Positions 424-64,000 of a stretch of 64,000 bases of DNA are shown here, piece by piece. Made by a program: the position numbers and the translations under genes. The notes under the pieces are model-generated. The model saw only the letters and a program-made list of their open reading frames with translations, was not told where the DNA came from and did not search any database. The DNA is from Bacillota bacterium (GTDB taxonomy: Bacteria; Bacillota; SHA-98; UBA4971): assembly GCA_030024085.1 (NCBI GenBank), contig JASEJE010000020.1, positions 129 through 64,128 of the forward strand, written 5' to 3'. Every line of letters starts with the position of its first letter. Positions within the stretch are counted from its first letter, which is position 1.

Positions 424-495
424 GAGACAGACAGCCTCGCCCTCGAGGAGCACAGACTGCACTGACCGGGCGGTAACACCGAGGACGATACTCTA

Positions 496-704
496 GGTAG
501 GTCGCCACAAGTTCGCGCTCCTTTTCGGCGGGTGAGTCCTGTCCGGGGTTGCCGGTGCTGCCCTCCGGGGACGGCGCGCTTGCGGCGCGCCTCGTTCGAA
601 TTTGGCGCGCGGGCTAGCCAAATTCTCGACGCCCCGTCGTGCAAGCACCGGCAACTCCAACACCGTCAGGGAAGATGGCGCAGACTTATGGCGCCATACT
701 TAGG
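496..704 (+). repeat. MITE-like palindromic structured repeat, copy 1 (variant 1: GTAGATCGCCACAAGTTCGCGC...GGCGCCATACTTAG)
   Basis: ~209 nt intergenic element. Core GGTTGCCGGTGCTGCCCTCCGGGGACGGCGCG...CGAATTTGGCGCGCGGGCTAGCCAAATTC...GTGCAAGCACCGGCAAC forms a long imperfect hairpin. Its ends are complementary (CGCCACAAGTTCGCGC / GCGCAGACTTATGGCG). Related copies occur at 6979, 22420, 31649, 35314, 41163, 63491 and 43335. Confidence 0.8.
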
Positions 705-917: not shown

Positions 918-1451
918 ATGCAGCTCAAAGGATCGAAAACAGAGGCCAATCTCAAGGCCGCGTTCGCTGGCGAGTCGCAGGCAAGGAACAAGTACACCTA
1001 CTTCGCTTCCGTCGCCCGCAAGGAAGGCTACGAGCAGGTCGCCGCCATCTTCGAGGAGACCGCGAGCAACGAGAAAGAGCACGCGAAGTTGTGGGCGAAA
1101 GCCCTCGGCATGATTTCCGACACCGCCGCCAATCTCGAGGAAGCTGCAAGAGGCGAGCACTACGAGTGGACCGCCATGTACCGGGAATTCGCTGAGACGG
1201 CGCGCAGCGAAGGCTTTGAGGATCTCGCGAAAGCCTTCGAGGAGGTCGCCGAGGTCGAGGAGGCCCATGAGAAGCGTTATCGCGCACTTCTCCAGCGCAT
1301 CCACAGCGCGACGGTTTTCCGCCGCGACCGCCCCATCAGGTGGCACTGCAGGAACTGCGGGTACATCCATGAAGGCACCGAGCCACCGGAGATATGCCCG
1401 GCCTGCGCACACCCGAGGGCGTTCTATGAGCCTCTTGCCGAGAATTACTGA
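918..1451 (+). CDS. rbr: rubrerythrin
   Basis: 177 aa from ATG at 918, preceded by GGAGGTG. N-terminal ferritin-like diiron domain ([23 protein letters not shown]...EKEHAKLW) plus C-terminal rubredoxin-type CxxC...CxxC ([12 protein letters not shown]...CPACAHP). The ORF-track 5' extension (639-917) reads through the repeat and is not credited. Confidence 0.9.
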
Positions 1452-1491
1452 GAGCTTCCGGTGAAACAGAAAAGCAAGGATGCTGATGGGA

Positions 1492-1524
1492 GGGACTGCG
1501 CTTTCGGGCGCGGTCCCTTCTTTG
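1492..1524 (+). terminator. intrinsic terminator downstream of rbr
   Basis: GGGACTGCGC-tttcgg-GCGCGGTCCC stem-loop followed by TTCTTTG. Confidence 0.55.
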
Positions 1525-1619
1525 TACCTTCCCACGGCTCATGTGATCGTCCCGGGTGCGATTTTTCTGTGCGAGGGGGACAGTTTCGGCAGGAGAAGCC
1601 CCCAGAGCCGGCGAAGATA

Positions 1620-1633
1620 TGTAACCGGCTACA
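1620..1633. promoter_or_regulatory. LacI/CcpA-family operator-like palindrome TGTAACCGGCTACA upstream of rbsR
   Basis: Near-perfect 14-bp palindrome matching the generic LacI-family/cre pattern TGTAAnCGnTTACA. A second, half-conserved site TGTAACCCATTGCA lies at 1686-1699 and overlaps the rbsR start. Confidence 0.45.
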
Positions 1634-1694
1634 GATAGCAATGCGAGCTACGATGGGCTTCTTGCATGGCTGGTAGGATGAGATATGTAACCCA

Positions 1695-2747
1695 TTGCAG
1701 CTCGGAAACGGGGATGGGAACATCACCACGATCTACGAAGTTGCAGAGCTTGCCGGGGTGTCGGTGGCCACCGCATCTAGGGCGCTCAACAATACCGGAT
1801 ACGTGAGCAAAGAGGCGAGAAGCCGCGTGTTGGAGGCGGCGCGCCGGCTCAACTACCACATCAACGTTAACGCCCGCAGCCTCACCAGCGGAAAGACCTA
1901 CACCATAGCCCTGGTGCTCCCCGACGTGACGAACCCGTTTTTCCCGGCGGTGGCGCGTGGTGTCGAGGATGCAGCGAGCAGAAAGGGCTACAGCGTCATC
2001 CTGTGTAACACCGACGGAAGCCCGCGAAAAGAGGCCGATTACCTCAACATGCTCAGGTCTCGGCGGGTCGATGGTATCGTCTTCACTACGTCAGAGCTTC
2101 CGGGTGCTCGGATCAGTAGCATCATAGGGGATTCCAGCGCCGTGGTGCTCGTGGACCGTGATCTCGATGAACCCTACGACATAGTGAAAACCGACAACGT
2201 CAAGGGCGGGTTCCTGGCCACGAGCCACCTGATCAGTCTCGGTCATACCCGGATCGCGGTCATATCAGGTCCCTTGAGCCTTACGACCGGCATGGAGAGG
2301 CTACAAGGTTACAGGGACGCCCTGGGTCAAGCGGGCATTCCTTTCGATGAATCGCTGGTAGTTGAAGGTGACTTCCGCCAGGAAGGGGGACGGGCCGCAA
2401 TGGAGCGCCTGATCGAGCAGTGCCGCGGGAGACCGTCCGCGAAGCTCTCAGCGGTGTTTGCCTGCAACGATCTCATGGCCGTGGGAGCGCTCACCGCTCT
2501 TGAGGAGCACGAGATCGCGGTGCCGTCAGAGGTCGCGATCGTCGGCTACGATGACATAGCCCTTGCTTCTGTGACGAGGCCGCGCCTGTCTACCGTGGCT
2601 CAGCCCAAGTACGAGATGGGCGTGCTTGCGGCGGAGATGCTCCTGCGGCGAATGGCCAACCCCAACCTTCCCAGGCAGCAAGAGGTCCTCCAACCGATGC
2701 TGGTGATCCGAGACTCCACACTTGAGAGGAGATCGAGATGCGGATGA
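1695..2747 (+). CDS. rbsR: LacI-family transcriptional regulator, ribose operon repressor-like
   Basis: N-terminal HTH ([22 protein letters not shown]) plus periplasmic-binding-protein-like sugar-binding core. First gene of an rbsK-A-C-D-B cluster. Probable TTG start. Confidence 0.85.
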
Positions 2748-3856
2748 GCATAGTGGTTGTCGGCAGCTTGAACATGGACTATGTCATGCAGGTTGATGAG
2801 CTGCCCCGCCCTGGGGAAACGGTGTTTTCAACACGGTACACCACCGCTCCAGGGGGCAAGGGCGCAAACCAGGCAGCGGCGGCTGCACGTCTTGGAGCCG
2901 AAGTCAAGATGCTCGGCTGCACGGGCGACGACGCGGCCGGGCGGGCGCTTCTTGGAAGCCTCCAGGCGTTTGGGGTTGACGTTTCTGCGGTGCGGGTCGA
3001 AGCGTCGGAGCCGACTGGGTCTGCCTTCATTACCGTATCTTCCTCAGGCGCCAATACCATAGTGGTGCATCGGGGGGCGAATTTCGCGCTGACGCCAGAG
3101 CGTTGCCGAGAGTGTGAGGGCCTCATCGCGCAGGCAAACGTGCTCGTGACCCAACTTGAGATCCCGCTTGATGCCGTCGTCGCAGCCCTCGAGATAGGTC
3201 GCCGCCATCACGTGATAACGGTCCTCAACCCTGCTCCTTCTGTTCCGATCCCCGGCAATGTGCTGGAACTTGCCGATTACCTCGTCCCCAACGAAACGGA
3301 GGCCGCCTCCCTTGCCTGTCACATGGCGAAACGGGGTGCTGGCAGCGAGGCTGCTGTGGGCGCCTCTGACCTCTCCGACCCGCGACAGGCAGCCGCGGTT
3401 GCAGCCCGGCTCGCGGAAGCTACGTGCGGCACGGTCGTCATAACCCTCGGTAAGAACGGCTGTGTCTGCTCAACACCAGCGCGCATGCCATCTTCGGCTA
3501 ACGTGAACGCCAGTGGGCGGGCGGAGAAACGTGGTGTCGTCGGAGCACGCGTGGCAAACGACGAATCCCCTGGAAGGCAGCGAAACCTTGCGATACCAGC
3601 GTTTAAGGTGAGGGCAGTCGATACCACGGCGGCCGGGGATGCCTTCGTAGGCGCGCTGGCCTATAGACTGGACCGCGCACGTGCTGCAAGTGGCACCGGC
3701 CTTCATCGATTCGATCTCGAGGAAGCCCTGCGTTTTGCGTCGGCCGCCGGGGCCCTCGCCACCACGAAGGTCGGGGCTCAGCCGTCCCTGCCGACGTTTC
3801 ATGAGGTTGCCGAGTTCATGAGAGCGTGCACCAATGAGAGCGAGCAACGGGGGTAG
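2738..3856 (+). CDS. rbsK: ribokinase (PfkB family) with an internal low-complexity insertion
   Basis: [27 protein letters not shown]...[15 protein letters not shown] and C-terminal DTTAAGDAF anion-hole motif. ~70 aa longer than typical, owing to an inserted Ser/Ala/Gly-rich segment. Confidence 0.85.
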
Positions 3857-3862
3857 GGTCTT

Positions 3863-5452
3863 GTGAGCAACAACAGCCTGCGTGCAGGCGGACTACGGCA
3901 AAGCCGCGCCAGGTTACAGCAAGACAGCAAGGCCAACCAGCCCATTCTAGAAATGGTCGGCATCACCAAGCGTTTCCCTGGGGTTCTCGCCCTCGACTCG
4001 GTGGACTTCCGGCTCATGCGGGGCGAGGTTCACGCGATCGTCGGCGAAAACGGAGCGGGCAAATCCACACTCATAAAGATCCTCGCCGGCGCTCACCAGA
4101 GGGACGCGGGCACCGTGTACCTCGACGGGCGGCCGGTGAGCATATCGTCCCCCGCCGACGCTGCGCGCCTCGGCATCAGCGTGATATACCAGGAATTCAC
4201 GCTCGTCCCGGCGATGACCGTGGCAGAGAACATACTGCTTTCGGACCTACCTGTGCGTCGGGGCGGGATGCTCGACAAGCGCGCCATCGTTTCCTGCGCA
4301 AAAGACGTGCTCGACGACCTGGGCGTCGACATCCCTGTGACTGCAACCGTCAGGTCGCTACGGGTGGCAGAACAACAGATAGTGGAGATAGCCAAGGCCC
4401 TGTCGCGCAAGGCCAGGATCATTGTGATGGATGAACCTACCGCCGCGCTAAGCGAGATGGAGGTCGCCCGGCTGTTCTCCATCATCCACTCCATGGTCGA
4501 GCAGGGCGTTTCCATCATCTACATATCCCATAAGCTCGATGAAGTGTTCAGGATAGCCGATACCATCACCGTCCTCAGGGACGGCCGGAGGGTCTCGACC
4601 ACGCCTACTTCCCTTCTCACGCTCACGAAGGAACGGATCGTCCACGAGATGGTCGGGAGAGACCTCGGAAACATGTTCCCAAAGGAGGAGGTCGCTCCAG
4701 GCGACGTAGTGCTCGAGGTGAAGAATCTGCGCCTACCAGGGGGGCCGTCTCCCATCTCGTTCAGCGTCAGGGCTGGCGAGATAGTCGGGGTAGTCGGCCT
4801 GATGGGCGCGGGGCAAATCAGATTGGCAAGGGCGCTCTTCGGTCTGGAGCGGATCGCCGGGGGCGAGGTGAAGATCAGGGGAAAGGCTGCTGACCTGCGG
4901 TCGCCGCTTTCTGCGGTGCATGCGGGTATCGGGTTGGTGACGGAGAACCGCAAGGAAGAAGGCCTCGTGCTGCCGCTATCGGTCGCCAGGAACATCACGC
5001 TTGGCAGCCTTGACCATGTGTCAACGCTGGGCGTGGTGTCGCAGAGGAAAGAAAGGGCCGTAGTGGATGAGAAAGTGGCCGAGCTCGGCATCAAGACCCC
5101 GTCGATTCGCCAGCTCGTGCGCAACCTGTCCGGAGGGAACCAGCAGAAGGTCGTCCTGGCGAAGTGGCTTACTGTCGATCCGGACGTCATAGTCCTCTGC
5201 GAGCCTACGCGCGGGATCGATGTCGGCGCGAAGGTGGAGATATACAGGTTGATGGGGCTCATGGCGTGGCAGGGTAAGGCCATTCTCCTGATCTCATCGG
5301 AAGTGCCCGAAGTGGTCGCCATGAGCGATAGGGTCCTGGTCATGCACTCCGGCAGCGTCGTATGCGATCTCCCCAGGGAAGAAGTCTCGCAGGAGTCAGT
5401 CATGCAGTACGCGACAGGAGGGAACGCCCTTGGGTCGCACATCGTTAGCTGA
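3863..5452 (+). CDS. rbsA: ribose ABC transporter ATP-binding protein (two fused ABC domains)
   Basis: Two Walker A motifs (GENGAGKST; GLMGAGQ) and an LSGGNQQKVVLAKWL signature. True start is probably a little downstream of the ORF-track start, near LEMVGITKRFPGV. Confidence 0.9.
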   Translation: MSNNSLRAGGLRQSRARLQQDSKANQPILEMVGITKRFPGVLALDSVDFRLMRGEVHAIVGENGAGKSTLIKILAGAHQRDAGTVYLDGRPVSISSPADAARLGISVIYQEFTLVPAMTVAENILLSDLPVRRGGMLDKRAIVSCAKDVLDDLGVDIPVTATVRSLRVAEQQIVEIAKALSRKARIIVMDEPTAALSEMEVARLFSIIHSMVEQGVSIIYISHKLDEVFRIADTITVLRDGRRVSTTPTSLLTLTKERIVHEMVGRDLGNMFPKEEVAPGDVVLEVKNLRLPGGPSPISFSVRAGEIVGVVGLMGAGQIRLARALFGLERIAGGEVKIRGKAADLRSPLSAVHAGIGLVTENRKEEGLVLPLSVARNITLGSLDHVSTLGVVSQRKERAVVDEKVAELGIKTPSIRQLVRNLSGGNQQKVVLAKWLTVDPDVIVLCEPTRGIDVGAKVEIYRLMGLMAWQGKAILLISSEVPEVVAMSDRVLVMHSGSVVCDLPREEVSQESVMQYATGGNALGSHIVS

Positions 5453-6428
5453 AATCGTCAAACGGTTCGGGATGGCTTTAATGCTGATAGCCATCATTGC
5501 CGTAGTGTCAGTGCTCAACCCCAGGTTCTTCAGCGTCTCCAACTTCCTCATAATCATGCGCCAGGTTGCGATCAACGGCACCCTGGCTGCTGGCATGACC
5601 ATGGTCATCATTTCGGGAGGCATCGATCTCTCCGTCGGCGGAAATGTGGCCTTCGCGGGGTGTCTCGCAGCAGGAGCCTTGCGTGCGACCTCCAGCCCGG
5701 TGCTAGCGATCCTCGCTGGGCTGGCGGTCGGCGTGGCGGTGGGGCTCGTCAACGGGCTGTTCGTCGCCTACCCGAAGATGCCCCCGTTCATCGTCACGCT
5801 GGCAACTCTGGCTCTGTGCCGCGGGCTGACTCTGGTCTACACAGGCGGCCGCCCACTCCTGGTCGATTCGAGGGTATTCGACTTCCTGGGAGGCGGCTTC
5901 GTATGGGGAATCCCGTTCCCAGTGTTGATCATGGTGGGGATCTACGCTCTCGTTTACTTCCTCACGAACAACACCAAATTCGGCAGGATGGTCTATGCTA
6001 TCGGCGGAAACGAGCAGGCCTGCCGCCTCTCTGGTATCAATGTGGAGAAGTTCAAAACGGCAGTGTACACGCTCAGCGGCCTCACTGCCGGCATTGCCGC
6101 GGTCATCCTTACGGCCCGTCTCATGTCTGCGCAGCCCACGGCAGGCGCCGGGTATGAGCTCGACGCCATTGCCGCTGTCATTCTCGGAGGGACCAGCCTG
6201 TCCGGTGGAGAGGGAGGGATAACCGGAACGGTGATCGGCGCGTTCATCATAGGGGTTTTGGCCAACGGCCTTAACCTCCTGAACGTCTCCCCGTTCTACC
6301 AGGAGGTGGCAAAGGGACTCGTGATCCTGGCGGCAGTGCTCATGGATAAGCTTATCCACACCACTGCCACCCAAGTTGAGGGTGTGCCCTTGGTGGGCGA
6401 ACGTGTGGACGCACACCAGAAACAGTAA
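5430..6428 (+). CDS. rbsC: ribose ABC transporter permease
   Basis: Multi-TM branched-chain/ribose permease family sequence. Its start overlaps the rbsA stop, consistent with translational coupling. Confidence 0.9.
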   Translation: MGRTSLAEIVKRFGMALMLIAIIAVVSVLNPRFFSVSNFLIIMRQVAINGTLAAGMTMVIISGGIDLSVGGNVAFAGCLAAGALRATSSPVLAILAGLAVGVAVGLVNGLFVAYPKMPPFIVTLATLALCRGLTLVYTGGRPLLVDSRVFDFLGGGFVWGIPFPVLIMVGIYALVYFLTNNTKFGRMVYAIGGNEQACRLSGINVEKFKTAVYTLSGLTAGIAAVILTARLMSAQPTAGAGYELDAIAAVILGGTSLSGGEGGITGTVIGAFIIGVLANGLNLLNVSPFYQEVAKGLVILAAVLMDKLIHTTATQVEGVPLVGERVDAHQKQ

Positions 6429-6527
6429 TGGCAACGACCGGTCGATAACCGAGGATCAGCCGAGAACGAGGGGCCGGCCCGTAACCAGCAAGAATTCAGC
6501 CGGTAGGCGCGTGGAGGTCGAGGTACG

Positions 6528-6944
6528 TTGAAAAAGTCCGGAATCATCAATCCATGCCTGTGCGAGGCCATTGCCAGCCTTGGACATACCGATTCGCTGA
6601 CAATATGCGACGCAGGGCTGCCCATTCCAGCAGGTGTGAAGCGGATCGACGTTACTGTCTCCAGAGGTGTGCCCACGTTCGCGCAAGTTCTGTCAGCGAT
6701 CGCACTAGAGCTCGAGGTCGAGCGGGCCGTGATGGCGGAGGAAGCCGTGAGTGAGAACCCTGAGGTCGTGGAGTTGGTCCGAAGCACGTATCCTGGGGTC
6801 ACAGTCGAGTTCGTCCCCCATGAGCGTTTCAAGAAGCTGGTCGAGCAGAGTAAAGCGGTGGTGCGGACGGCGGAGTTCAAGCCCTTTTCCAACGTGCTCC
6901 TCTACTCAGGGGTTGCGGGGCTGTTCGAGAGATCCGCCGGATAG
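6528..6944 (+). CDS. rbsD: D-ribose pyranase
   Basis: MKKSGIINPCLCEAIASLGHTDSLTICDAGLPIP matches the RbsD N-terminal signature. Confidence 0.9.
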   Translation: MKKSGIINPCLCEAIASLGHTDSLTICDAGLPIPAGVKRIDVTVSRGVPTFAQVLSAIALELEVERAVMAEEAVSENPEVVELVRSTYPGVTVEFVPHERFKKLVEQSKAVVRTAEFKPFSNVLLYSGVAGLFERSAG

Positions 6945-6978
6945 CCGACAGCAAAGAGGAGGTGGTAAACCGAGGACT

Positions 6979-7170
6979 CTAAGTGTGAGTTCAGAAATCC
7001 GTGCCGGTTTGGGAGAGGATTCCGGGTTGCCGGTGCTTGCACGACGGGGCGTCGAGAATTTGGCTAGCCTTAAGCGCCAAATTCGAACGAGGCTCACCGC
7101 ACGCGCCGTCCCTGGAGGGCAGTACCGGCAACCCTGGAAAAGTGGCGGTGATTTCTGAACCCACACTTAG
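6979..7170. repeat. MITE-like palindromic structured repeat, copy 2 (variant 2, TIR CTAAGTGTGAGTTCAGAAATC / GATTTCTGAACCCACACTTAG), inside the rbs operon
   Basis: Same hairpin core as copy 1 in the opposite orientation, with ~21-bp near-perfect terminal inverted repeats. Located between rbsD and rbsB. Confidence 0.8.
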
Positions 7171-7185
7171 TGGGATTCCAACAAG

Positions 7186-8163
7186 GTGTTGCCCGGTGTC
7201 ACAGATGTCGTCAGTGTCTCGGTGCCGTGCTCCCAAATCTTACGCGAAAGGCAGGTCAGTCACATGAAGGCGTCTAGAATCCTTGTGGCCATTCTGTGTG
7301 TAGCCCTTTTCGCAACCCTGACAGGCTTTACGGCAGCGGCGACGAAACCGAAGGCAGGTCTTGCCATATCTACGCTCAACAACCCGTTCTTCGTGGACCT
7401 CAGAGACGGGGCGCTCGAGGCAGCCGCCAAGGTTGGAATGGAGGTCAACGTGGCGGACGCCCAGAATGACCCCAACAAGCAGCTCAGCCAGGTCGAGAAC
7501 TTCATCCAGGAACGCGTTGATATAATCCTGGTCAACCCGTGCGACTCTGCGGCTATCGTGCCCGCGATAAAATCGGCCAACGCCGCCAAGATACCCGTGA
7601 TCACGGTGGATAGGGGAGCCGACGGCGGCAATGTGGTATGCCACATCGCGTCCGACAACGTCGAAGGCGGGCGGATGGCCGCCGAGTACCTCGCGAAGCT
7701 CCTCAACTACAAGGGCAGGGTCGTGGAGCTCGAAGGCATACCCGGAACCTCGGCCGCGAGGGACAGGGGCAAGGGCTTCAACGAGATCATCAAGAAGTAC
7801 CCCAACATCCAGGTGGTGGCGAGGCAAGAAGCCGGGTTCGACAGGGCCAGGGGCATGACTGTCATGGAAAACATCCTCCAGGCGCAACCCGCCATCGACG
7901 GGCTCTTCTGCCACAACGACGAGATGGCTCTTGGCGCCCTGCGCGCCATCGAGGCCGCCGGCCGTCTCTCGGCCGTCAAGATCGTTGGGTTCGATGCGAC
8001 CGACGATGCCGTGAAGGCCGTGAAGGAAGGCAAGATGGCAGCCACGGTCGCCCAGAAGCCGCGAACCATGGGAGCCATCGCAGTAGAGACGGCCAGGAAG
8101 GTGCTTGACGGTGCAAGCGTTAACGAGTTCATACCTGTCCCGCTCGAGCTTGTCACGAAATAG
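7186..8163 (+). CDS. rbsB: ribose ABC transporter substrate-binding lipoprotein/periplasmic protein
   Basis: Probable start at MKASRILVAILCVALFATLTG (~7264), giving a signal peptide. Type-I periplasmic binding fold motifs (INNPFFVDL...ILVNPCDSAA...FDATDDAVKAVKEGKMAATVAQ). The ORF-track 5' end overlaps the repeat. Confidence 0.9.
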   Translation: MLPGVTDVVSVSVPCSQILRERQVSHMKASRILVAILCVALFATLTGFTAAATKPKAGLAISTLNNPFFVDLRDGALEAAAKVGMEVNVADAQNDPNKQLSQVENFIQERVDIILVNPCDSAAIVPAIKSANAAKIPVITVDRGADGGNVVCHIASDNVEGGRMAAEYLAKLLNYKGRVVELEGIPGTSAARDRGKGFNEIIKKYPNIQVVARQEAGFDRARGMTVMENILQAQPAIDGLFCHNDEMALGALRAIEAAGRLSAVKIVGFDATDDAVKAVKEGKMAATVAQKPRTMGAIAVETARKVLDGASVNEFIPVPLELVTK

Positions 8164-8202
8164 CCTGTAGGCGAGGCTTGACCTGACGTTGGATGACCAG
8201 AG

Positions 8203-8466
8203 GTGGGGCGGGGCCGCAACCCCCGCCTCGCCGTACGTAGAGGAAGCAGGTACGGCATGACATCGGAACATGACGCCGACAGCAATGCAAGGCCTGTAAT
8301 CCTCGATTGCGGCCCGGGCCATGACGATGCCCCGGCGATCCCACTCGCGGCGGCGTCGCCGGAACTGAAGATACTCGGGATCACCACAGTGTGTGGCAAC
8401 ACCGCACTCGGCGACTCCGCCACGAACACCCTGCGCCTGGTGAGTTTCGCAGGCCCGGACCCATGA
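8203..8466 (+). pseudogene. N-terminal fragment of an inosine-uridine-preferring nucleoside hydrolase (IU-NH)
   Basis: PVILDCGPGHDDAPAIPLAAASPELKILGITTVCGNTAL is the IU-NH N-terminal aspartate/histidine cluster motif (DxDxGxDDxxAI). The ORF stops after 87 aa (enzymes are ~310 aa) and the next gene starts 120 bp later, so the remainder of the gene is absent. Confidence 0.55.
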
Positions 8467-8585
8467 TCGGTTGCGAGAGGCGCGGCGAGGCCCCTCGGCC
8501 CCTCCTTGCCAGGCTGCGCGCAGGGTGAGGAGCCGGCCCCGTCAACCCGCGATGAGAGTAACCAGGCCATTCCCTGGCAACATTA

Positions 8586-9644
8586 TTGGCGTTGGGGGGA
8601 ATGGCCATGAAGCGCATCTATAAGCATGTCTGCACATTCTTCAGGGTCTTCAAGTTCTGGGCTGGCGCGACGCGTGCCTCTTTCGCGTCGGCGAGCATGG
8701 TCCCGGTGGTGCTCGGCGGCGCCGTCGCGGCCGCCCACGGCGCCTTTGCCGTGGGGCCGTTCCTGTTGAGTGCCGTTGGAGTGCTCGCCCTGCACCTTGC
8801 GGCGAACCTCGTCAACGACTACTACGACTATACGAGCGGCGCGGACGTGATCCGCGACAGCCACACGCCTCTTTATGGCGGCGGGACGATCCTCGTTGAC
8901 GGAACGCTGATCCCGCGGCAGGTGTCGCGGGCATACAGGTTCCTCTACGCGGCGGCGCTCCTCGCAGGGATCGCCCTCGCAGCAATGCGCGGCGCTGGCG
9001 GTGCTGGCGTGCTCGCCTTTGGCTTTGCAGGCTCTCTATGCGGGTACTTTTATACCGCGCCGCCCCTCCGCCTCTCCTACGTGGGGCTCGGCGAGGCCAC
9101 GATAGGGCTATGCTTCGGGCCGCTCACCGTGGCTGGCGTCTACTTCGTGCAAACCGGCAGGCTTGGCGCGGAGGCCATGGAGGCTCTGGTCGCTTCACTC
9201 CCAGTGGGCCTCCTTGTGGCTGCCATAGTATTCGTCAACGAGTTCCCTGACCGCGCGTCCGACGGCGCTGCCGGCAAGCGCACAGTCGTGGTGCGCCTCC
9301 CCCTGCGCGCGGCCCTCGCCTGCTACGCCGCGCTCGTGCTGGCGCCGTTCGCCGTCATCGCCAGCGCCATCCAGCTCGGGCTACTCCCGCACGGCGCCGC
9401 TCTCGCGTTTCTCGGCCTGCCCCTCGCCGTGCTGGGCATCAGGAACCTGCGCGCCGCCTATGCCACTTCGGGTACGCGGCGTGCCGGTGCAGGCGCCAGC
9501 GCCCCAGGCGCCCACGAGTCCTCCACCGCCTGTACCGCGTACGTTACGTCCCGCCAGGTGGTAGCCAGCATCTCAACTATCCTGCTACACCTCGCGGTGG
9601 GCCTGCTCCTCTCGCTGGCTTTCGTCGTGCAGTTGTTTAGCTGA
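8586..9644 (+). CDS. UbiA-family prenyltransferase (MenA / 1,4-dihydroxy-2-naphthoate prenyltransferase-like)
   Basis: Polytopic membrane protein with NDYYDYTSGAD (MenA/UbiA Asp-rich motif) and a second Asp-rich region NEFPDRASD. Likely start MKRIYKH (~8607). Confidence 0.7.
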   Translation: MALGGMAMKRIYKHVCTFFRVFKFWAGATRASFASASMVPVVLGGAVAAAHGAFAVGPFLLSAVGVLALHLAANLVNDYYDYTSGADVIRDSHTPLYGGGTILVDGTLIPRQVSRAYRFLYAAALLAGIALAAMRGAGGAGVLAFGFAGSLCGYFYTAPPLRLSYVGLGEATIGLCFGPLTVAGVYFVQTGRLGAEAMEALVASLPVGLLVAAIVFVNEFPDRASDGAAGKRTVVVRLPLRAALACYAALVLAPFAVIASAIQLGLLPHGAALAFLGLPLAVLGIRNLRAAYATSGTRRAGAGASAPGAHESSTACTAYVTSRQVVASISTILLHLAVGLLLSLAFVVQLFS

Positions 9645-22419: not shown

Positions 22420-22550
22420 AAGTGTAAGTTCAGAGATCCTTGCCACTTTTCCGGGAGTTGCCGGCGTTGCGCTCCGGGGACAACCCGCGCTATTCTTCAG
22501 GTCCCGTTGAGCCCCCGGGACCGGGGATCCGGCAGCCCGAAGCACCGCTG
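22420..22550. repeat. MITE-like repeat, copy 3 (degenerate or truncated)
   Basis: Begins like variant 2 (AAGTGTAAGTTCAGAGATCCTTGCCACTTTTCCGGGAGTTGCCGGCGTTGCGCTCCGGGGAC) then decays; ~130 nt. Lies between the deoB stop and the udp start. Confidence 0.6.
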
Positions 22551-31928: not shown

Positions 31929-32603
31929 TTATTCGATCATTACGAGCGAATACCAGTTCTGCTCCTGGCTTTCGTCGGCAAGCGTCTCTATCGGAAGCCC
32001 CTGCCTGCGCGCGGTAGCGTATACGTCGATCCCCATGCCCTGCATGGCGGGCCTCGCTTTGCCTGGGAACCGGCAGGGCCTGTCCTCCGGCAGGCTGCAC
32101 TCGGCGCACAGTCCGCAATCGCTCATGCTGAATGCGAAGTAGTACCCGTCCACGTACGCACGGCTCTCCACGGTAAACGAGATCTTTTGGGAGGACTCCT
32201 TGTCATGCGTGTGGATGAGCACTGCGTGCCTGTATCGCGACAGCACCCGTTCGGCCTCCCACGGCTTCAGCGCCCCCGGGGCCGACGGACAGACCCAGCA
32301 CTTCCCCCAGGTAGAGCAGCCATACATGCACTTGAGATAGGTCCTGGGATCGAACACGATGTCGCATGCGTCGATCACAAGGGCGTCCACCGCCCCGAGG
32401 CTCCTTGCCAGCTCGGCGTATTTCGCATACTTCTCCTCCAATTCTTTCCCCTTCTTCCACACGATATGATGCTGCCATAGTTGCCGCGCCGAAACCGGCC
32501 TACTCGTAATTCGACAACCCGGCCCGGCTGTCCTGCCGCCACCCTGCTCGTTCCTGCGGCACGTCGATATCACGCTTGTGTGTGATCTTTGATGTGTTGA
32601 CAA
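31929..32603 (-). CDS. Cys-rich predicted metal-binding protein (DUF2284-like)
   Basis: Cys clusters CMYGCSTWGKCWVCP and DCGLCAECSLPEDRPC. True start probably internal (~32464). Confidence 0.45.
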   Translation of the reverse strand: MSTHQRSHTSVISTCRRNEQGGGRTAGPGCRITSRPVSARQLWQHHIVWKKGKELEEKYAKYAELARSLGAVDALVIDACDIVFDPRTYLKCMYGCSTWGKCWVCPSAPGALKPWEAERVLSRYRHAVLIHTHDKESSQKISFTVESRAYVDGYYFAFSMSDCGLCAECSLPEDRPCRFPGKARPAMQGMGIDVYATARRQGLPIETLADESQEQNWYSLVMIE

Positions 32604-32643
32604 CAGTGTCTATCCGTGGGATACTCTCATCGTAGACCGCCTC

Positions 32644-33042
32644 ATGGGACGGTTGGAGGTGACCTCGATGCCCAAGAAGATCCCCGCGTCCGTGCTGGAT
32701 TTCGTTACACACAACGTCTTGCAGGTGACCGACCTCACACGAAAGGGCCGACTTGCTGAAATCCTCGACGCGTACTCATGCAGGGAGAGCTCGGAAGTAT
32801 ACGTGGTTCAGAACGCGAAGAAGCCAGGCGCGCAGGCCGCGCTGGTGGATGTGGGGTTCCTGAAGGAACTCCTCACCGTAAAGGAACTTGTGGATGAAGC
32901 GGTTGACGATCTCCTCGCGAGCGAAGTGAAGGCTAGGCTCGACGAGCCCGCCGACGTACCTCTGACGGATTTGGTATCGAAGCTCGGGATCGACCTGAGC
33001 GAGGTTGCTCGTTTGGCCGAGAGCGAGGAGACAGAGGAATGA
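32644..33042 (+). CDS. type II antitoxin, Phd/YefM-like
   Basis: N-terminal region (SVLDFVTHNVLQVTDLTRKGRLAEILDAYS...EVYVVQNAKKPGAQAALVDVGF) has the Phd/YefM pattern. Acidic C-terminus. The stop overlaps the start of the downstream toxin gene. Confidence 0.5.
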   Translation: MGRLEVTSMPKKIPASVLDFVTHNVLQVTDLTRKGRLAEILDAYSCRESSEVYVVQNAKKPGAQAALVDVGFLKELLTVKELVDEAVDDLLASEVKARLDEPADVPLTDLVSKLGIDLSEVARLAESEETEE

Positions 33043-33440
33043 ACGTCGAGCAAGACCTGGACCGTCTCCTCGGCAAGGATTGCCGCACGAAGGTGATACT
33101 CGCCCGCAAGGCGGTGGCCGATATCGAAGCGCTTGACCGCGGGCTGCAGAGCATCGTTGTCGCAGCGATAGTCAGGCGCGCCAGGGGAGGGCCTCTCTTG
33201 AAGCCTCGCGGTCTTGGCGAACCCCTTGGTCGCGGCCTTGCGGGGGTCGCAAAGATCAAGCTCAAGAGGCACGGCATGAGAATAGTGTACCGGCCGGTCG
33301 AGAGGGGCGACGCGATAGTCATGGAGATCCTCGCGGTGGGCCCGAGGGCTGCCGGCGAGGTGTACAGGGAAGTCGCTCGCCGTCTGAACGAGATGGACAA
33401 GGATGCTGCGGGTGCAGGCACACGAGAGCCGCCGAAGTGA
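33039..33440 (+). CDS. type II toxin, RelE/ParE family
   Basis: KIKLKRHGMRIVYRPVERGDAIVMEILAVGPR resembles the RelE/ParE C-terminal beta-sheet core. 4-nt overlap with the upstream antitoxin. Confidence 0.55.
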   Translation: MNVEQDLDRLLGKDCRTKVILARKAVADIEALDRGLQSIVVAAIVRRARGGPLLKPRGLGEPLGRGLAGVAKIKLKRHGMRIVYRPVERGDAIVMEILAVGPRAAGEVYREVARRLNEMDKDAAGAGTREPPK

Positions 33441-33470
33441 AGGCGCGAGAAGGAGCGAGCAATAAGAACT

Positions 33471-33498
33471 AGGGGGCGCCCCATAGATCGCCCCCGTG
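33471..33498. terminator. GC-rich hairpin between convergent genes (GGGGGCG-ccccatagat-CGCCCCC)
   Basis: Lies between the RelE stop (33440) and the DUF3794 gene stop (33572). No strong U-tract. Confidence 0.35.
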
Positions 33499-33571: not shown

Positions 33572-35323
33572 TCACGGGATAACCAGCGTGTCGCCGATCT
33601 CGATGCGGTCGGGGTCGGGAATTGCATTGGCCTGCACGATCGCCGCGACCGTGGTGCCGTAGCCCTGGGCTATCTGGTATAACGTCTCGCCCACCTGCAC
33701 CACGTGGACGCGCCCCGGCGTGGGCACCTGCCCGCCTCCGCCCACCGGCGGCCCTGGCAGGCCCGTGGACGGTCCTGGCAGTTGAGGGGCGATCTCGCCT
33801 GCGCCCGCCGTCGTGTCGTTCACGCCCACCACGGCCGACACGGTGTCGACGCGCGTCACCATGGTCCAGCCGCGCAGCACGACTCTCACATTTACGAACC
33901 TGGGCTCGACCGGGACAGCCACCACCCGGATGACGTCTATGTCGCACACGGCGTAGTAGGCCGGAATGGCGCCTGGCACCCGCAACGTCACCGAGAACGG
34001 CACCGTCTCCACGGTCGCGAACACCCTCTGGGTCGGAAGCTCGGAGTAGAGCACGGTGATTCGCAAGGTGCCTTCCACCAGCACCACGCCGTCGAGGACC
34101 GTGGTCCTCGTCACGCGTACCTGCGCAAACGACTGGATCACCCTGCCGATCGCCGGCAACTCGGCAGGCACGACGATCCGCACCGGGATCGTGGAGTTGT
34201 CCTCGACCTGGCCCACGATCTCCTCCACGAGGAACTCCCGGGTCACTGCCACGAGCGGAGTCGGAAGCGGCTCCACCGCCGTGATGAGCGGCAGTTCCCT
34301 CTCGACCGTCACGACCACGGACACCCGGAGCACGACCCTCACCCGGAGCGTGCGTGCGTTCACGATCTCAGCATCAGCGGCCTCCACGTGTACCGAGGCG
34401 AACGCGAACATCCCCGGCAGCACCCCTGGAAGGCTCACGACGGTGCTGAAGCTGAGGGCACCGTCCACCGAGAATACGGGCTGGTTCGGGCTCATTGCCA
34501 CGTAGAGCACACGCACCGAGACGGCCCCGTTCACCACCACTTTGCTCTGAAGCACCCGGGCGCTGCTCACGGACGCCGCAGCATCGGTGCGGATGACCTG
34601 AGACACGCCGGGTTTGTCCGGCGGTATCGATATCGTCCCGACCGCGATGGTCTCGGCCTCACCCTGCAACACCGCCCGCTCGACTGTGACCACCTTTTTC
34701 TTCACGATGGGCACCACCGGCACTTCCACAGCGGGCACGATGATGGTGGGCGGCACCTCCACCACGACCTCGGTGATCTCCTCCCTGAGGACGCGCACTC
34801 TCAGCGACACAAGCACGTTGACCTCGACGGTTCTCGGATCGATGAGCCGCGCCGTGGCGAATACGCTCGTCACGAGCACCTCCGGGATCATGCCGCCGAA
34901 GACTCCCGGCACACTCACGCTCCCGAACAGGGGCAGCACACCCTCGAAGGCGTGTACCGGCTGCGACGGCGCCGTGGACACGTAGAGAATGTCCACGTCC
35001 ACGTTTCCCTGGATGACCACGGCCCCCGGCACGATCGTGACCTGCGTGATGGCCGCCCGCGCCTGGGTGTCGAGGATGGATGCGATGTCGGGCTTCGGAG
35101 GAGGCACGACCAGCCGCCCGCTCGCCACGATGCTGGCGCTGACGTCGGCGACAACCACCTCGACCTTCACTTTCCTCCGGGGGAAGCCCGATACGATTAC
35201 ATCGGAAGACAACTCGCTCCCTCCTTCCCGCAGACTCCTTACCAGGATATGATATGTGAAGCGCCCACCGGGCGCCACAGGGCGCCGGCGCGCGGCGCAC
35301 CCCGAGGCCGAATGTGGGTTCAC
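33572..35323 (-). CDS. multi-repeat DUF3794 (SipL-like) protein with C-terminal LysM domain
   Basis: Four ~120-aa repeats with the VxGxVxVxxLYVAxxPxQPVxxxxxxxxFxxxxxxPG(A/V)xPG pattern. C-terminal LysM (VHVVQVGETLYQIAQGYGTTVAAIVQANAI). Probable TTG start near 35212, after GGAAGGAGGGAG. Confidence 0.75.
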   Translation of the reverse strand: MNPHSASGCAARRRPVAPGGRFTYHILVRSLREGGSELSSDVIVSGFPRRKVKVEVVVADVSASIVASGRLVVPPPKPDIASILDTQARAAITQVTIVPGAVVIQGNVDVDILYVSTAPSQPVHAFEGVLPLFGSVSVPGVFGGMIPEVLVTSVFATARLIDPRTVEVNVLVSLRVRVLREEITEVVVEVPPTIIVPAVEVPVVPIVKKKVVTVERAVLQGEAETIAVGTISIPPDKPGVSQVIRTDAAASVSSARVLQSKVVVNGAVSVRVLYVAMSPNQPVFSVDGALSFSTVVSLPGVLPGMFAFASVHVEAADAEIVNARTLRVRVVLRVSVVVTVERELPLITAVEPLPTPLVAVTREFLVEEIVGQVEDNSTIPVRIVVPAELPAIGRVIQSFAQVRVTRTTVLDGVVLVEGTLRITVLYSELPTQRVFATVETVPFSVTLRVPGAIPAYYAVCDIDVIRVVAVPVEPRFVNVRVVLRGWTMVTRVDTVSAVVGVNDTTAGAGEIAPQLPGPSTGLPGPPVGGGGQVPTPGRVHVVQVGETLYQIAQGYGTTVAAIVQANAIPDPDRIEIGDTLVIP

Positions 35324-35497
35324 AAGTTCGCTCCGGTGTTCCAGCGAATTCCGGGTTGCCGGCGTTGCGCTCGGGGGACGACGCCCTTGCGGGGCGCCTC
35401 GCTAGATTTGGCGTTCAGGCCTGCCAAATCTTCAACGCCCCTCGCGCAAGCACCGGCAACCCCTGGAAAAGTGGCAGTGATCTCTGAACTCACACTC
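35314..35497. repeat. MITE-like repeat, copy 5 (variant 2-like 3' end CCTGGAAAAGTGGCAGTGATCTCTGAACTCACAC)
   Basis: Same hairpin core. Immediately upstream of the DUF3794-LysM gene. Confidence 0.75.
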
Positions 35498-41029: not shown

Positions 41030-41162
41030 CGCACACCCCTCCCTTGTGGTCCTCCGTCCGCCGCGCGCGTGTGCGTGTGCCCGTGTGTGCGGAGCGCCGC
41101 CGCGAGGCGCGGCCAGGCGCCGCCACGTGCCGTCAAACTTCGTCAGATGTCTCTAAGTAGAT

Positions 41163-41364
41163 CGCCAGAAATCCGCGCTGCTTTTCAGCGTGCAGGGGCT
41201 CTCCTGGGTTGCCGGTGCTTGCACTCCGGGGACGGCGCGCTCGCGGCGCGCCTCGTTCGAATTTGGCGCACGGGCCAGCCAAATTCCAGGCGCCCCGTCG
41301 TGCAAGCACCGGCAACCCTACCACACTCAAGAAAAACGCCGAAGACTTCTGGCGCCATACTTAG
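41163..41364 (+). repeat. MITE-like repeat, copy 6 (variant 1; TIR CTAAGTAGATCGCC...GGCGCCATACTTAG)
   Basis: Full-length copy between the epimerase start and the GH18 gene stop. Flanked by ATGTC on both sides (possible target-site duplication). Confidence 0.8.
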
Positions 41365-43177: not shown

Positions 43178-43334
43178 ATTTCAAAACGCCCTCCGCGCAG
43201 CGAAGTCCTTGCTCGCTGCAAGCTCATGCTGCATTTTATGCCCACGCGCGCCTGCGTGTTACCGCCCTGCGGCTCCCCTGCGACGGCGCAAAGCGGAGGA
43301 GGAGGGGCTTGCCGCGTTGCACTCTCTTTTCGAG

Positions 43335-43400
43335 TCACCGGCAACCCAGCAGCCGCTGGAACGCCCGAAGGGATTAATGAACCCTCACTTAGTACCGCTC
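43335..43400. repeat. MITE-like repeat remnant (3' end only)
   Basis: CACCGGCAACCCAGCAGCCGCTGGAACGCCCGAAGGGATTAATGAACCCTCACTTAGT matches the variant-2 3' terminus CACCGGCAACCCTGGAAAAGTGGCGGTGATTTCTGAACCCACACTTAGT. Confidence 0.45.
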
Positions 43401-43995
43401 TGTCACATATGGAGCGCTGGCAGTACCGTCACTTGAGCTGACGGCTGACGTACGTCACGGGTTCGTCCCCAACCGTTCCCTACGTCACCGTTGATAGCCG
43501 TCCGCTGATGTACATCATCGGTCCCGGCTTTACCCGTTCCCTACGTCACACATGCGAGGGGTAGCGGGACGTGCGTCACTCGTCAGGCTCTTCCCGTTCC
43601 GCACGTCACCCATCGGGGGCCAATGGGTGACGTACATCATCGTTGCCGCCTCACCAGTTCCCTGCGTCACGGGTTCTTCATGAATCGTTCCATACGTCAC
43701 CCGTCGAAGCGAGACGAGTGACGCACATCACGGCTCCGTCCCCAACCGTTCCCTGCGTCACGCTTGAGAGCCATCCAGTGATGTGCATCACCGATGCGAG
43801 CCTTACCCGTTCCCTGTGTCACCCATGCAACGGGAAGAATGATGTATGTCACTCGCCAGGCTCTTCCCGTTCCATACGTCACGCATCGAAGCCAATTGCT
43901 GACGCACATCACTCTCCACCTTACCCGTTCCGTACATCACGGGTCTCCCGGGAACTACACGATTGAGGGCCACCGCGGCCAGGAGTCGCCGTGCC
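43398..43995 (-). repeat. complex 60-bp-periodic tandem array, element B (inverted copy of 26490..27050)
   Basis: CCTTACCCGTTCCCTACGTCAC recurs every ~60 bp (43467, 43530, 43590, 43650, 43745, 43805, 43865, 43925). Both ~50-70-bp flanks are homologous, in inverted orientation, to the flanks of element A. Confidence 0.8.
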
Positions 43996-44051
43996 GGACA
44001 AACCCGCAGACCTGCCAAACCGGATGGCACTTCGTATCTGACAGGGCAGTG

Positions 44052-45110
44052 TTACCCGTGCCTGGCCCGCCGCGTGCCGGGCAGCCGCAGCCTAGGGCGG
44101 GCGAGGTAGCGCGTGAACGCGGTCGCGGCTTCCCGGAGAGGGGAGATCAGTGCACCCAGGGCCGCGCGGGCTGCGCCGGGCCCCTGCCGGGCGGATTCAC
44201 CCCGGACAGGCGCGTGAGCACTTCCCGGCCTCTCCGTTGCCTCTGCCGCCTCCGTTGCCTCCATTTCCGCCGTTGCTTCTACGGCCTCCATTTCCGCCGC
44301 TGACCGGGCTGCCCCTACCTCCAGCGCCGACGTCGTTGCATCCATTTCCGGCTTTGACTCCGTCGCTTCCGCTGCGCTGTTCGTCCCCGTTGCCCCCTCG
44401 GTCTCCGTCGCCAGCTCCGACGGCGCCGCATCAGCGCTCTGGTCGCCGGAACGCCGCTCCCCCGCCTCGATCGCCGTGATCACTGAAAGCACTACGGTCT
44501 CCAGCACAAGCGCGTCAATGACGACGGTCGCGGTCACGCATATCCTGCCAGGCCCAGCGACGGTCCGCCGCACGCCATCAGGGTCCCTCGGGGCCCGCCA
44601 CTCGTCCGCCTCCCTGGCGTCACATCCATGCTCGGAGCCATCGTCCCCGCAGGCGGAGCGGCCGACGCCCGCCGTGCCAGCCACGCCCGCCGCGATCCAG
44701 GCGCTCTGACATCCCACGCTGAAGCGCCCCTCCACGGACATGCCCCGGCGGAGCGATACATCTTCAATGAGAGTCCGAAGGTCCTCTTCCCAGGAAAGCG
44801 CGCGCACCGGCCTTCCGTCTGACAGGCAGTAAGCCCACACAAGGAGCGTCGCGGATGCGAGGGCCGACCCGTCGAAGACATCCCACGACGGGTCGAGCAC
44901 GTCGATGGTCAGGCCCACGACTTCCCGCACGCCCTCCGGCGCCTCGTGCCACAGGCTGACCGTGACCTCGCGCGCGAGCCTGCACACGACCCGCTCCACG
45001 CGCAGCGTCTCCGTCCTCACGCTGATGCCGCCGAACCGGTCAGACCCGCCCAACCCCCTGCGCCTCCCCGGGCCGAACCCGGCCGTGCGCTGCGCTCCAG
45101 CGCATTGCAT
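44052..45110 (-). CDS. hypothetical protein (Ala/Glu/Thr-rich C-terminus); gene model uncertain
   Basis: Long ORF with no recognised domain. Central part (LWHEAPEGVREVVGLTIDVLDPSWDVFDGSALASATLLVWAYCLSDG) looks protein-like; the ends are low complexity. Confidence 0.3.
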   Translation of the reverse strand: MQCAGAQRTAGFGPGRRRGLGGSDRFGGISVRTETLRVERVVCRLAREVTVSLWHEAPEGVREVVGLTIDVLDPSWDVFDGSALASATLLVWAYCLSDGRPVRALSWEEDLRTLIEDVSLRRGMSVEGRFSVGCQSAWIAAGVAGTAGVGRSACGDDGSEHGCDAREADEWRAPRDPDGVRRTVAGPGRICVTATVVIDALVLETVVLSVITAIEAGERRSGDQSADAAPSELATETEGATGTNSAAEATESKPEMDATTSALEVGAARSAAEMEAVEATAEMEATEAAEATERPGSAHAPVRGESARQGPGAARAALGALISPLREAATAFTRYLARPRLRLPGTRRARHG

Positions 45111-63490: not shown

Positions 63491-63610
63491 TGGATCGCCA
63501 CAAATTCGCGCTACCTTTCAGCGCGCAGGTCCTCGCCGGGGTTGCCGGTGTTGCGCTCCGGGGACGGCGCTTGCGGCGCGCGAGGATCAGGGTTGGCAGG
63601 TCTCACCGCA
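63491..63610 (+). repeat. MITE-like repeat, copy 7 (5' half of variant 1, truncated)
   Basis: TGGATCGCCACAAATTCGCGCTACCTTTCAGCGCGCAGGTCCTCGCCGGGGTTGCCGGTGTTGCGCTCCGGGGACGGCGCTTGCGGCGCGCG, then diverges. Lies upstream of yabE. Confidence 0.65.
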
Positions 63611-64000
63611 TCTCTATATGCCCACTTACCTGCTCTTGTACCCCGTTCTCCTGCCAGACCCGGCGCTACAGCGCGCTGGCGCCCGGCAGCACAAAAGCTT
63701 GTTCGTTACTATTCGACCAGAATCGGCAAAATCCTCCTTGAGACGCCAGGTGCCCCCATCTCGCCTTCATCGGAAAGCGCTCGATACCATTATCGGCAGG
63801 TACTTTCCGCACTATGCATTGATACCCAGTGGGTACCCGGGCCTGGGAGCGCGCTCCGACCGCGCAGGCGAACAACACGTAACCTGCAACACACCATAGA
63901 GAACGAGAAACGAGAGAGAATGCGGCAGAGGGCTGGCTGTTGCCTTCGGGCGACGGCAGTTGACGTGTATGCTATTGCGGCGGGTATCCTATATGTGCGA

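Follow-up and report, generated by a model that had tools for sequence, protein, structure and literature searches.

The palindromic repeat between rbsD and rbsB in the window (the whole stretch of 64,000 nt of Bacillota DNA analyzed here) is a MITE, a non-autonomous DNA transposon: it is short and non-coding, it has terminal inverted repeats, it is flanked by a TA duplication when compared with the empty site, and its copies are dispersed and polymorphic. Very probably, it was inserted after strain divergence by a transposase of CTAG-type specificity acting in trans, belongs to a modular family and rides in the ribose operon as a tolerated passenger. The process can be outlined as follows: a transposase supplied in trans would integrate the element at the TA of a CTAG, duplicating the TA in the manner of IS630/Tc1-mariner elements; insertion into the CTAG between rbsD and rbsB would have followed the split from relatives with ~97-98% identical rbsB; the family would have evolved as a mosaic, by nesting into the CTAGs of its own cores and subsequent recombination; and read-through of the operon would provide the transcript with an independently folding hairpin of ~-100 kcal/mol. 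The first-pass annotation had likened the repeat to inserted Correia elements, and this likeness has been borne out by empty-site alleles in close relatives, the TA target duplication and the multi-copy family to which the repeat belongs. Contigs and loci outside the window are given below by L numbers.

The Palindrome and Its Setting

A 192-nt palindromic repeat with 21-nt terminal inverted repeats had been reported for the rbsD-rbsB spacer, and both its span and its termini are as claimed (Table 1). Of the 21 positions of the terminal arms, CTAAGTGTGAGTTCAGAAATC and GATTTCTGAACCCACACTTAG, 20 are complementary; the inverted repeat reaches 32 nt at 81%, and the rbs copy has a second, inner inverted repeat (7024-7037 / 7121-7134). 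The palindrome is real and far beyond chance; its terminal pattern, with up to three mismatches allowed, has five matches in the 64-kb window and none in 100 shuffles. The hairpin is also very stable, as had been asserted: the fold of 6970-7180 has -104.1 kcal/mol (z = -6.5) for the + strand and -100 kcal/mol (z = -7.7) for the - strand. The two terminal bases of the 192-nt span, C and G, are those of the CTAG target and lie outside the 186-nt mobile unit. Covariance model R1 matches the rbs copy on the + strand at 7025-7137 with 106.3 bits. At 186-192 nt, the element is far below the 500 bp taken as the bound for a MITE; open reading frames overlapping it all extend into the flanks, with none contained within it, and have been treated as chance ORFs of GC-rich DNA.

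Table 1. Positions in the window of the rbs genes, the parts of the rbs-site element and the other copies of the family.
Feature	Position	Strand	Basis or remark
rbsR	1695-2747	+	NCBIfam
rbsK	2738-3856	+	NCBIfam
rbsA	3863-5452	+	NCBIfam
rbsC	5430-6428	+	NCBIfam
rbsD, D-ribose pyranase, upstream neighbour	6528-6944	+	NF008761, 153.6 bits vs cutoff 93
Whole repeat, C-TA-element-TA-G, T1 copy	6979-7170	+	core on same strand as rbs genes
Left terminal inverted repeat, 21 nt	6979-6999	.	target C-TA included
Left copy of duplicated TA target dinucleotide	6980-6981	.	empty allele of L089/L091
Mobile element proper, 186 nt, AGTGTGAG...CCCACACT	6982-7167	+	exact 188-nt difference from empty alleles
P1, 5' half, GGGTTGCCGGTGCTTGC	7024-7040	+	nearly invariant in all subfamilies; helix 1: 98% of cells paired
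Hairpin P3, GAATTTGGC / GCCAAATTC	7056-7084	+	changes on both sides in 8 of 9 pairs
Hairpin P4, degenerate	7091-7108	+	GGCGCGC/GCGCGCC in most copies
P1, 3' half, GCAGTACCGGCAACCC	7119-7134	+	
Right terminal inverted repeat	7150-7170	.	20/21 complementary to left
Right copy of duplicated TA target dinucleotide	7168-7169	.	empty-allele comparison
rbsB, ribose-binding protein, downstream neighbour	7264-8163	+	NF007936, 343.7 bits vs cutoff 337
Full copy, T2 arms	493-703	-	BLASTN, profile/covariance models
Truncated copy: core 3' part and T1-type right arm	22420-22481	-	BLASTN
Full copy, T2 arms, diverged P1	31645-31857	-	BLASTN, profile/covariance models
Full copy, T1-like arms, degenerate tips	35313-35496	-	BLASTN, profile/covariance models
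Full copy, T2 arms	41153-41364	-	BLASTN, profile/covariance models
Reduced copy: short-loop P1 hairpin and one arm	43304-43392	+	
Truncated copy: core 3' half and T2 right arm	63536-63617	-	BLASTN

The names given to the rbs genes (R, K, A, C, D and B) were confirmed by NCBIfam. The genes had further been described as tightly packed; this stands for rbsR/rbsK and rbsA/rbsC, which overlap, and for rbsK-rbsA with its gap of 6 nt, but not for rbsC-rbsD, which are 99 nt apart, nor for rbsD-rbsB, whose spacer is already 131 nt long in relatives lacking the element. The start of rbsB lies 94 nt past the element. By eye, the RbsB sequence of the window is identical to the cluster member P0122 / MDI7247678.1, and the nearest named homologues of RbsB are those of Limnochordia. 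The product of rbsK has 372 aa, and ribokinase profiles of ~300 aa match it in two stretches, because of which it would contain an internal insertion of ~40-70 residues; the GC3 signal of this gene is weaker than that of its neighbours. Nearly all of the relatives compared have a Shine-Dalgarno-like GGAGGTG ~10-15 nt past the stop codon of rbsD (window 6955-6966; at the same place in L077, L081, L085 (GGAAGGTG), L087, L089 and L092); from this motif it is ~100 nt or more to the start of rbsB, and it is not followed by a conserved ORF.

Empty and Filled Alleles in Relatives

The contigs of RbsB homologues, together with members of the same 90% cluster, served as relatives (Table 2). The comparison of spacer lengths proposed in the first-pass annotation gives 319 nt for the window, and the difference from the empty alleles of L087, L088 and L089-L091 is exactly 188 nt, that is, 186 nt and one TA. 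In L089-L091, the intact target GGACTC-TA-GTGGGATTCC corresponds to GGACTC-TA-(186 nt)-TA-GTGGGATTCC in the window. At the rbs site, 186 nt have been inserted into a CTAG, the TA of which was duplicated. The site is empty in nine related contigs, in which rbsB is 95.0-98.4% identical to that of the window, and the insertion, as judged from these alleles, is recent and strain-specific, since the closest relatives, MAG107 and JBLNCJ01, also lack the element.

Table 2. The rbsD-rbsB site in relatives, with the identity of their rbsB DNA to that of the window.
Contigs	rbsB identity	State of the site	Sequence or spacer
L087 (MAG107)	98.4%	empty, 131-nt spacer	GGACTC-CA-GTGGAATTCC
L088 (JBLNCJ01)	97.9%	empty, 131-nt spacer	GGACTC-CA-GTGGAATTCC
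L089/L090/L091 (two ENA assemblies and DJVM01)	97.4%	empty, 131-nt spacer	GGACTC-TA-GTGGGATTCC
L077-L080	95.0%	site gone via separate 16-nt deletion	AAACCGAGGACTCTAG
L092 (JBLNDA01)	89.7%	same CTAG holds T4 element CTAAGTGGGGGTGCGGAAATGC...CCCTCACTTAG	spacer 321 nt
L081-L084	86.3%	empty	
L085/L086	82.1%	unrelated 314-nt spacer, no inverted repeats	

The T4 copy at the rbs CTAG of JBLNDA01 (L092:172-368; JBLNDA010000037.1) is a second, independent insertion, so that two subfamilies have used a single site. Neither an inverted repeat nor an Rfam match was found in the longer spacer of L085/L086, which indicates that this spacer is not a copy of this MITE or of another obvious one. Empty sites were found at no locus besides rbs among the 76 loci listed, and the filled left junction, AGGTGGTAAACCGAGGACTCTA, had no matches in a metagenome scan.

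From the L077-L080 allele, the insertion had been read as one of 204 nt with 12 extra bases and no duplication. The closer relatives refuted this reading, which arose because the L077 lineage has a separate 16-nt deletion; an outgroup alignment had already hinted that it was wrong. Flank transduction, or excision with deletion, had been considered for the same allele and was dropped after the L087-L091 alleles. These alleles also bear on a different kind of mobility, in which a REP/REPIN- or IS200/IS605-type hairpin transposes in single-stranded form, through a tyrosine (HUH) transposase, and leaves no duplication. Stems maintained through compensatory change (see below) would suit such an element, as would the seeming lack of a duplication and the 12 extra bases in the L077 allele; but the site in that allele has undergone its own 16-nt deletion, the pre-insertion allele of L089-L091 gives a clean TA duplication, and the ends are symmetric and inverted, with C-TA / TA-G flanks in ~90% of copies, making this explanation extremely improbable. 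Membership of the REP or REPIN class was ruled out by the TA duplication together with the TAAGT.../...ACTTA ends.

Ends, Target and Transposase of the MITE

The 78 copies of the MITE with recognizable tips have the form C-TA-AGT...ACT-TA-G, the base before TA being C in 72 and the base after TA being G in 66 of them; further out, no base is conserved. No matching pair of ends 0.6-3.5 kb apart, as expected of a full-length IS supplying the transposase, was found in 629 kb of DNA selected for carrying the MITE, nor was the transposase motif SPxLNPxE found in the six-frame translation of ~690 kb of DNA selected in the same way; orphan ends were all decayed MITEs. IS630 itself reportedly prefers TA within CTAG. 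IS630/Tc1/mariner elements as a rule integrate at TA only and duplicate this TA (PMC2170065), and both features were found at the rbs copy and at a copy nested in L046. Because no cognate transposase was found, we infer the IS630 class of the family from its target signature. Elements of the IS427 group (IS5 family) may likewise duplicate TA when they insert at CTAG, and a transposase of this group may be an alternative source. A MITE of the IS5 group, elements of which make a 4-bp CTAG duplication (PMC9241763), with a CTAG / YTAR duplication was rejected: the filled site reads CTAA...TTAG, and the difference from the empty site is 186 + 2 nt, not 186 + 4 nt.

Three nested copies (in L046, L030 and L057) are located exactly at CTAGs of host cores. 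Both junctions are present in L046 (GCTTGC-TG-AGTATGG...CTACT-TA-GGGCG), and only the left junction in L030 and L057. In L057, recombination between two cores has deleted the intervening parts, producing chimeric arms. The P3 loop of the rbs copy also contains a CTAG (7064-7067), a potential target for nested insertion that is the one used in L057. CTAG is about eight-fold depleted in the 64-kb window, with 25 occurrences observed against 212 expected from base composition. Only eight of them are outside predicted genes, six of these being in or at repeat copies (493, 614, 7064, 31763, 31788 and 35402); the other two, at 33469 and 37138, are the only free intergenic CTAGs of the 64 kb. Insertion destroys the target CTAG and the core carries new ones, and this accounts for nested copies, chimeric arms and repeated use of a site.

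The two independent insertions at one intercistronic site could reflect selection. However, the scarcity of free CTAGs explains the repeated occupation of the rbs CTAG, and at an unrelated orthologous intergenic region (L045 and L063) different subfamilies are likewise found in two species; recurrent use of scarce CTAGs thus seems to characterize the family as a whole and not to be special to rbs. The T4 element at the same site and the rarity of CTAG fit target-limited transposition, which the family illustrates in a CTAG-poor genome. In L030, a core-less stretch of ~150 bp (937-1086), TA-AGTGGCTGG...CCCGTACT-TA-G, abuts a family copy and shares its TA; it may represent a second, core-less MITE family with the same target.

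The Repeat Family and Its Hosts

BLASTN of the element against the window revealed four further full copies and three partial ones, bringing the total to five full and three partial copies (Table 1). The window copies have in common a core of ~115 nt, from GGGTTGCCGGTGCTTGC to CCGGCAACCC, and differ in their outer arms. The family comprises more than 100 copies in DNA from at least seven Bacillota MAG assemblies: a core-pattern scan restricted to one genome per species gave at least 76 loci, and a profile HMM gave 115 non-overlapping core matches, of which 105 are full-length. The listed loci are from MAG107 JBLNDE01, AS02xzSISU_21, AS04akNAM_80, UBA6811, MAG-64 and MAG303, all uncultured Bacillota, and also include two contigs binned as Betaproteobacteria. 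These two (L062 and L069, JBLNCC01, labelled Betaproteobacteria MAG135) carry typical copies of the Bacillota repeat and are probably mis-binned, since they come from the same project as MAG107. The window itself is 96-97% identical to MAG107 over ~15 kb. The family core had no matches in a viral-contig scan, and a literature search on inverted repeats of Limnochordia brought up no description of the family; it is a large and apparently undescribed repeat family of uncultured Limnochordia-like Bacillota.

At least four arm subfamilies (T1 to T4) can be distinguished, the rbs copy belonging to T1, and chimeric copies occur. T1 and T2 are 96% identical in the core and 53% and 47% identical in the arms. 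According to a simple GC3-based gene call, 70 of the 73 assessable copies are outside predicted genes; 46 of these are between co-directional, 15 between convergent and nine between divergent genes. In the co-directional gaps the core is on the gene strand in 27 copies and on the opposite strand in 19, with no significant bias, and the family thus lacks the orientation preference expected for a terminator or mRNA element.

With about one copy per 8-13 kb in the window, the family is dense in its hosts, which are uncultured digester-type Bacillota. It breaks assemblies, several copies being situated at stretch ends (e.g., L006, L044, L047 and L031), and its copies can be used as ready-made strain markers.

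A Conserved Core with Paired Helices

Single-sequence folds of divergent copies agree on a three-way junction: a P1 stem of ~16 bp is followed by a small purine-rich internal loop and a GGGG/CCCC helix, and the core junction bears a long hairpin, P3, and a G+C-rich hairpin, P4. P4 of the rbs copy, 'GGCTCACCGCA--CGCGCC', is a deletion variant that is common to several other copies. The structure was set by hand and used in a covariance model, replacing RNAalifold on a plain MAFFT alignment of 99 cores, the consensus of which was uninformative because the variable loops were misaligned. When the cores are aligned to the covariance model, 94.8% of cells are paired, and in 18 of 42 pairs both partners have changed (206 cells). 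Such values were attained in 0 of 500 shuffles, and the slid controls gave much lower ones. The model gives 105 strong forward-strand matches (53-139 bits) in 613 kb, with 30-41 bits on the reverse strand. Wobble cells number 92 for G-U and 115 for A-C, with no strand asymmetry. This near equality indicates that the helices are kept equally on both strands, as would be the case for a DNA palindrome or for arm-to-arm conversion, and the pairing pattern of the core is not that expected of RNA selected on one strand.

P1 is perfectly palindromic in DUMQ01 (AS04akNAM_80), and there the interior of the core lies one way round relative to the arms in six copies and the other way round in five (e.g., L007:4585-4701 and L054:605-721). 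This points to inversion between the two halves of P1, either by recombination or by template switching. A search of Rfam 15 gave no match for the whole window at gathering thresholds and none for the region 6940-7210 at E <= 10.

What is the core for? Two facts count against a MITE that is no more than a passenger: conservation of the core far exceeds that of the arms, and the core helices have compensatory changes (18 of 42 pairs), and a purely selfish element does not obviously need a core so conserved and compensated. The core might then be a structured non-coding RNA gene or motif that is moved about by differing terminal arms. The three-way-junction architecture kept across subfamilies, the both-side changes with their shuffled and slid controls, the higher forward-strand scores and the conservation of the core relative to the arms all speak for it. 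Nevertheless, such an RNA is very improbable: the wobble cells have no strand asymmetry, the copies have no orientation bias relative to genes, neither promoter or terminator signals nor an Rfam match was found, the interior is inverted relative to the arms in one genome, and arm-to-arm gene conversion in inverted repeats can mimic covariation. It is likewise quite improbable that the core is a selected module (RNA or protein-binding DNA) on interchangeable arms that has been convergently recruited between rbsD and rbsB. If this were true, the T1 and T4 arrivals would be an intra-operon processing or insulating element setting the level of ribose-binding protein against that of the upstream gene products; a functional core would also make the family a natural model in which to study a structured module that is mobile.

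Effect of the MITE on the Ribose Operon

It had also been proposed that the hairpin attenuates or stabilizes the rbs transcript or decouples rbsB from it. Neither promoter-like nor terminator-like sites were found in 6400-7400, and a wider scan of 1400-8700 gave nothing relevant. No U-tract follows the rbs hairpin, the next sequence being GTGGGATTCC, and the hairpin thus lacks this feature of an intrinsic terminator. In predicted folds of the intercistronic region and the start of rbsB, the element forms a separate domain that adds ~-97 kcal/mol, and the mean unpaired probability from -20 to +12 of the rbsB start is 0.334 with the element, 0.334 with the element removed and 0.354 for the L077 allele. 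The element lies upstream of a block of the spacer that is conserved before rbsB in all relatives.

According to the regulatory explanation, the element is an exapted intra-operon RNA that is co-transcribed with rbs and whose hairpin attenuates read-through, shields the rbsRKACD mRNA from 3' exonucleases or is cleaved by RNase III, thereby uncoupling rbsB. Its appeal lies in the great stability of the sense-strand hairpin (-104 kcal/mol, z = -6.5), its location just 5' of the binding-protein gene, the presence of a second subfamily at the same site in L092, and the precedents of RNase III cleavage of Correia elements and of mRNA decay altered by ERIC (PMC10969869; PMC3184786). It is nonetheless unlikely, given that five contigs with rbsB 97.4-98.4% identical to that of the window do without the element, that there is neither a U-tract nor a terminator-like site, that the predicted accessibility of the rbsB start region is unchanged, that copies between co-directional genes are in both orientations (27 versus 19) and that CTAG scarcity explains the repeated use of the site, as is also seen at L045 and L063. 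The computed evidence gives no support to regulation of the operon by the element. The element at rbs is most likely a tolerated passenger, and we infer that its insertion was neutral; by analogy with the precedents, the element may have a side effect on the RNA, for example if its long stem is cleaved by RNase III. The insertion matters little for the operon itself and shows that ~190 extra structured bases are tolerated at the rbsD-rbsB junction.

Relation to Known Elements

RUP of pneumococci and ERIC/IRU of enterobacteria are MITEs mobilized by IS630/Tc1-mariner transposases. Like MITEs of this class, the present family is short and non-coding, with terminal inverted repeats, a TA duplication and a long hairpin, and is multi-copy, mostly intergenic and often co-transcribed with neighbouring genes; its use of CTAG resembles the preference reported for IS630. 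Unlike them, it has no cognate transposase or full-length IS in the DNA searched. It also differs from RUP/ERIC-type MITEs in resembling no curated RNA or repeat family searched, in its host, an uncultured high-GC Limnochordia-like Bacillota, and in its modular build, one conserved three-way-junction core being framed by arms of at least four subfamilies.

Correia repeat-enclosed elements (CREE) of Neisseria are similar in size (~100-200 bp), terminal inverted repeats, conserved core and copy number, and they too duplicate TA. Promoter-like ends and an IHF site have been described for them, and the present family differs from them in sequence and host phylum. Correia elements in or next to operons are transcribed into hairpins that are bound or cut by RNase III, and neighbouring genes are affected (PMC2649163; PMC10969869). 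The same kind of operon setting has been described for Chunjie, a MITE of Geobacter uraniireducens inserted in a phosphate-uptake (pst) operon (summarized in PMC10969869). Chunjie resembles the present element as a recently active MITE of ~180-235 bp in an operon for an uptake system, with other copies that are intergenic and variable in size. Family and host are different, as is the target site, and for Chunjie the effect on the operon has been examined.

REP/BIME and REPIN sequences are also intergenic palindromes, and REPs can sit within an operon and stabilize upstream mRNA. REPs make no target duplication, unlike the rbs-site element with its terminal inverted repeats and TA duplication. 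They are 20-40 bp long, have a GTAG or CGTC head and are linked to RAYT transposases (PMC3733652). RUP, ERIC and Correia elements are the closest behavioural analogues and, for the operon setting, Chunjie. The family is new and the kind of element is known. Worth noting are the modularity of the arms that surround its conserved structured core, the CTAG-limited target economy and the two independent insertions at one intercistronic site.

Other Differences from MAG107

A few other segments differ between the window and MAG107. At 43304-44374, the arm of the reduced copy differs from the orthologous place in MAG107 (L038:4250-4430), and the ~1 kb after the copy (43304-43392) is absent in MAG107 and rich in dispersed CCGTTCCCTACGTCAC-like motifs; Tandem Repeats Finder detected no array in this ~1-kb segment. 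A segment of ~950 bp (32545-33496) is absent from MAG107, in which L020 has 106 bp at this place. It contains two ORFs, 32644-33042 (132 aa) and 33039-33440 (133 aa), that overlap by 4 nt, a layout resembling that of a two-gene addiction or defence cassette. In MAG107, a sequence of ~700 bp occurs in at least three places with 85-86% identity (L029:2608-3314, L075:7236-7925 and L027:1767-2453). It has no convincing ORF, its translations are periodic, and it adjoins a family copy in L029; it may be another repeat or an array.
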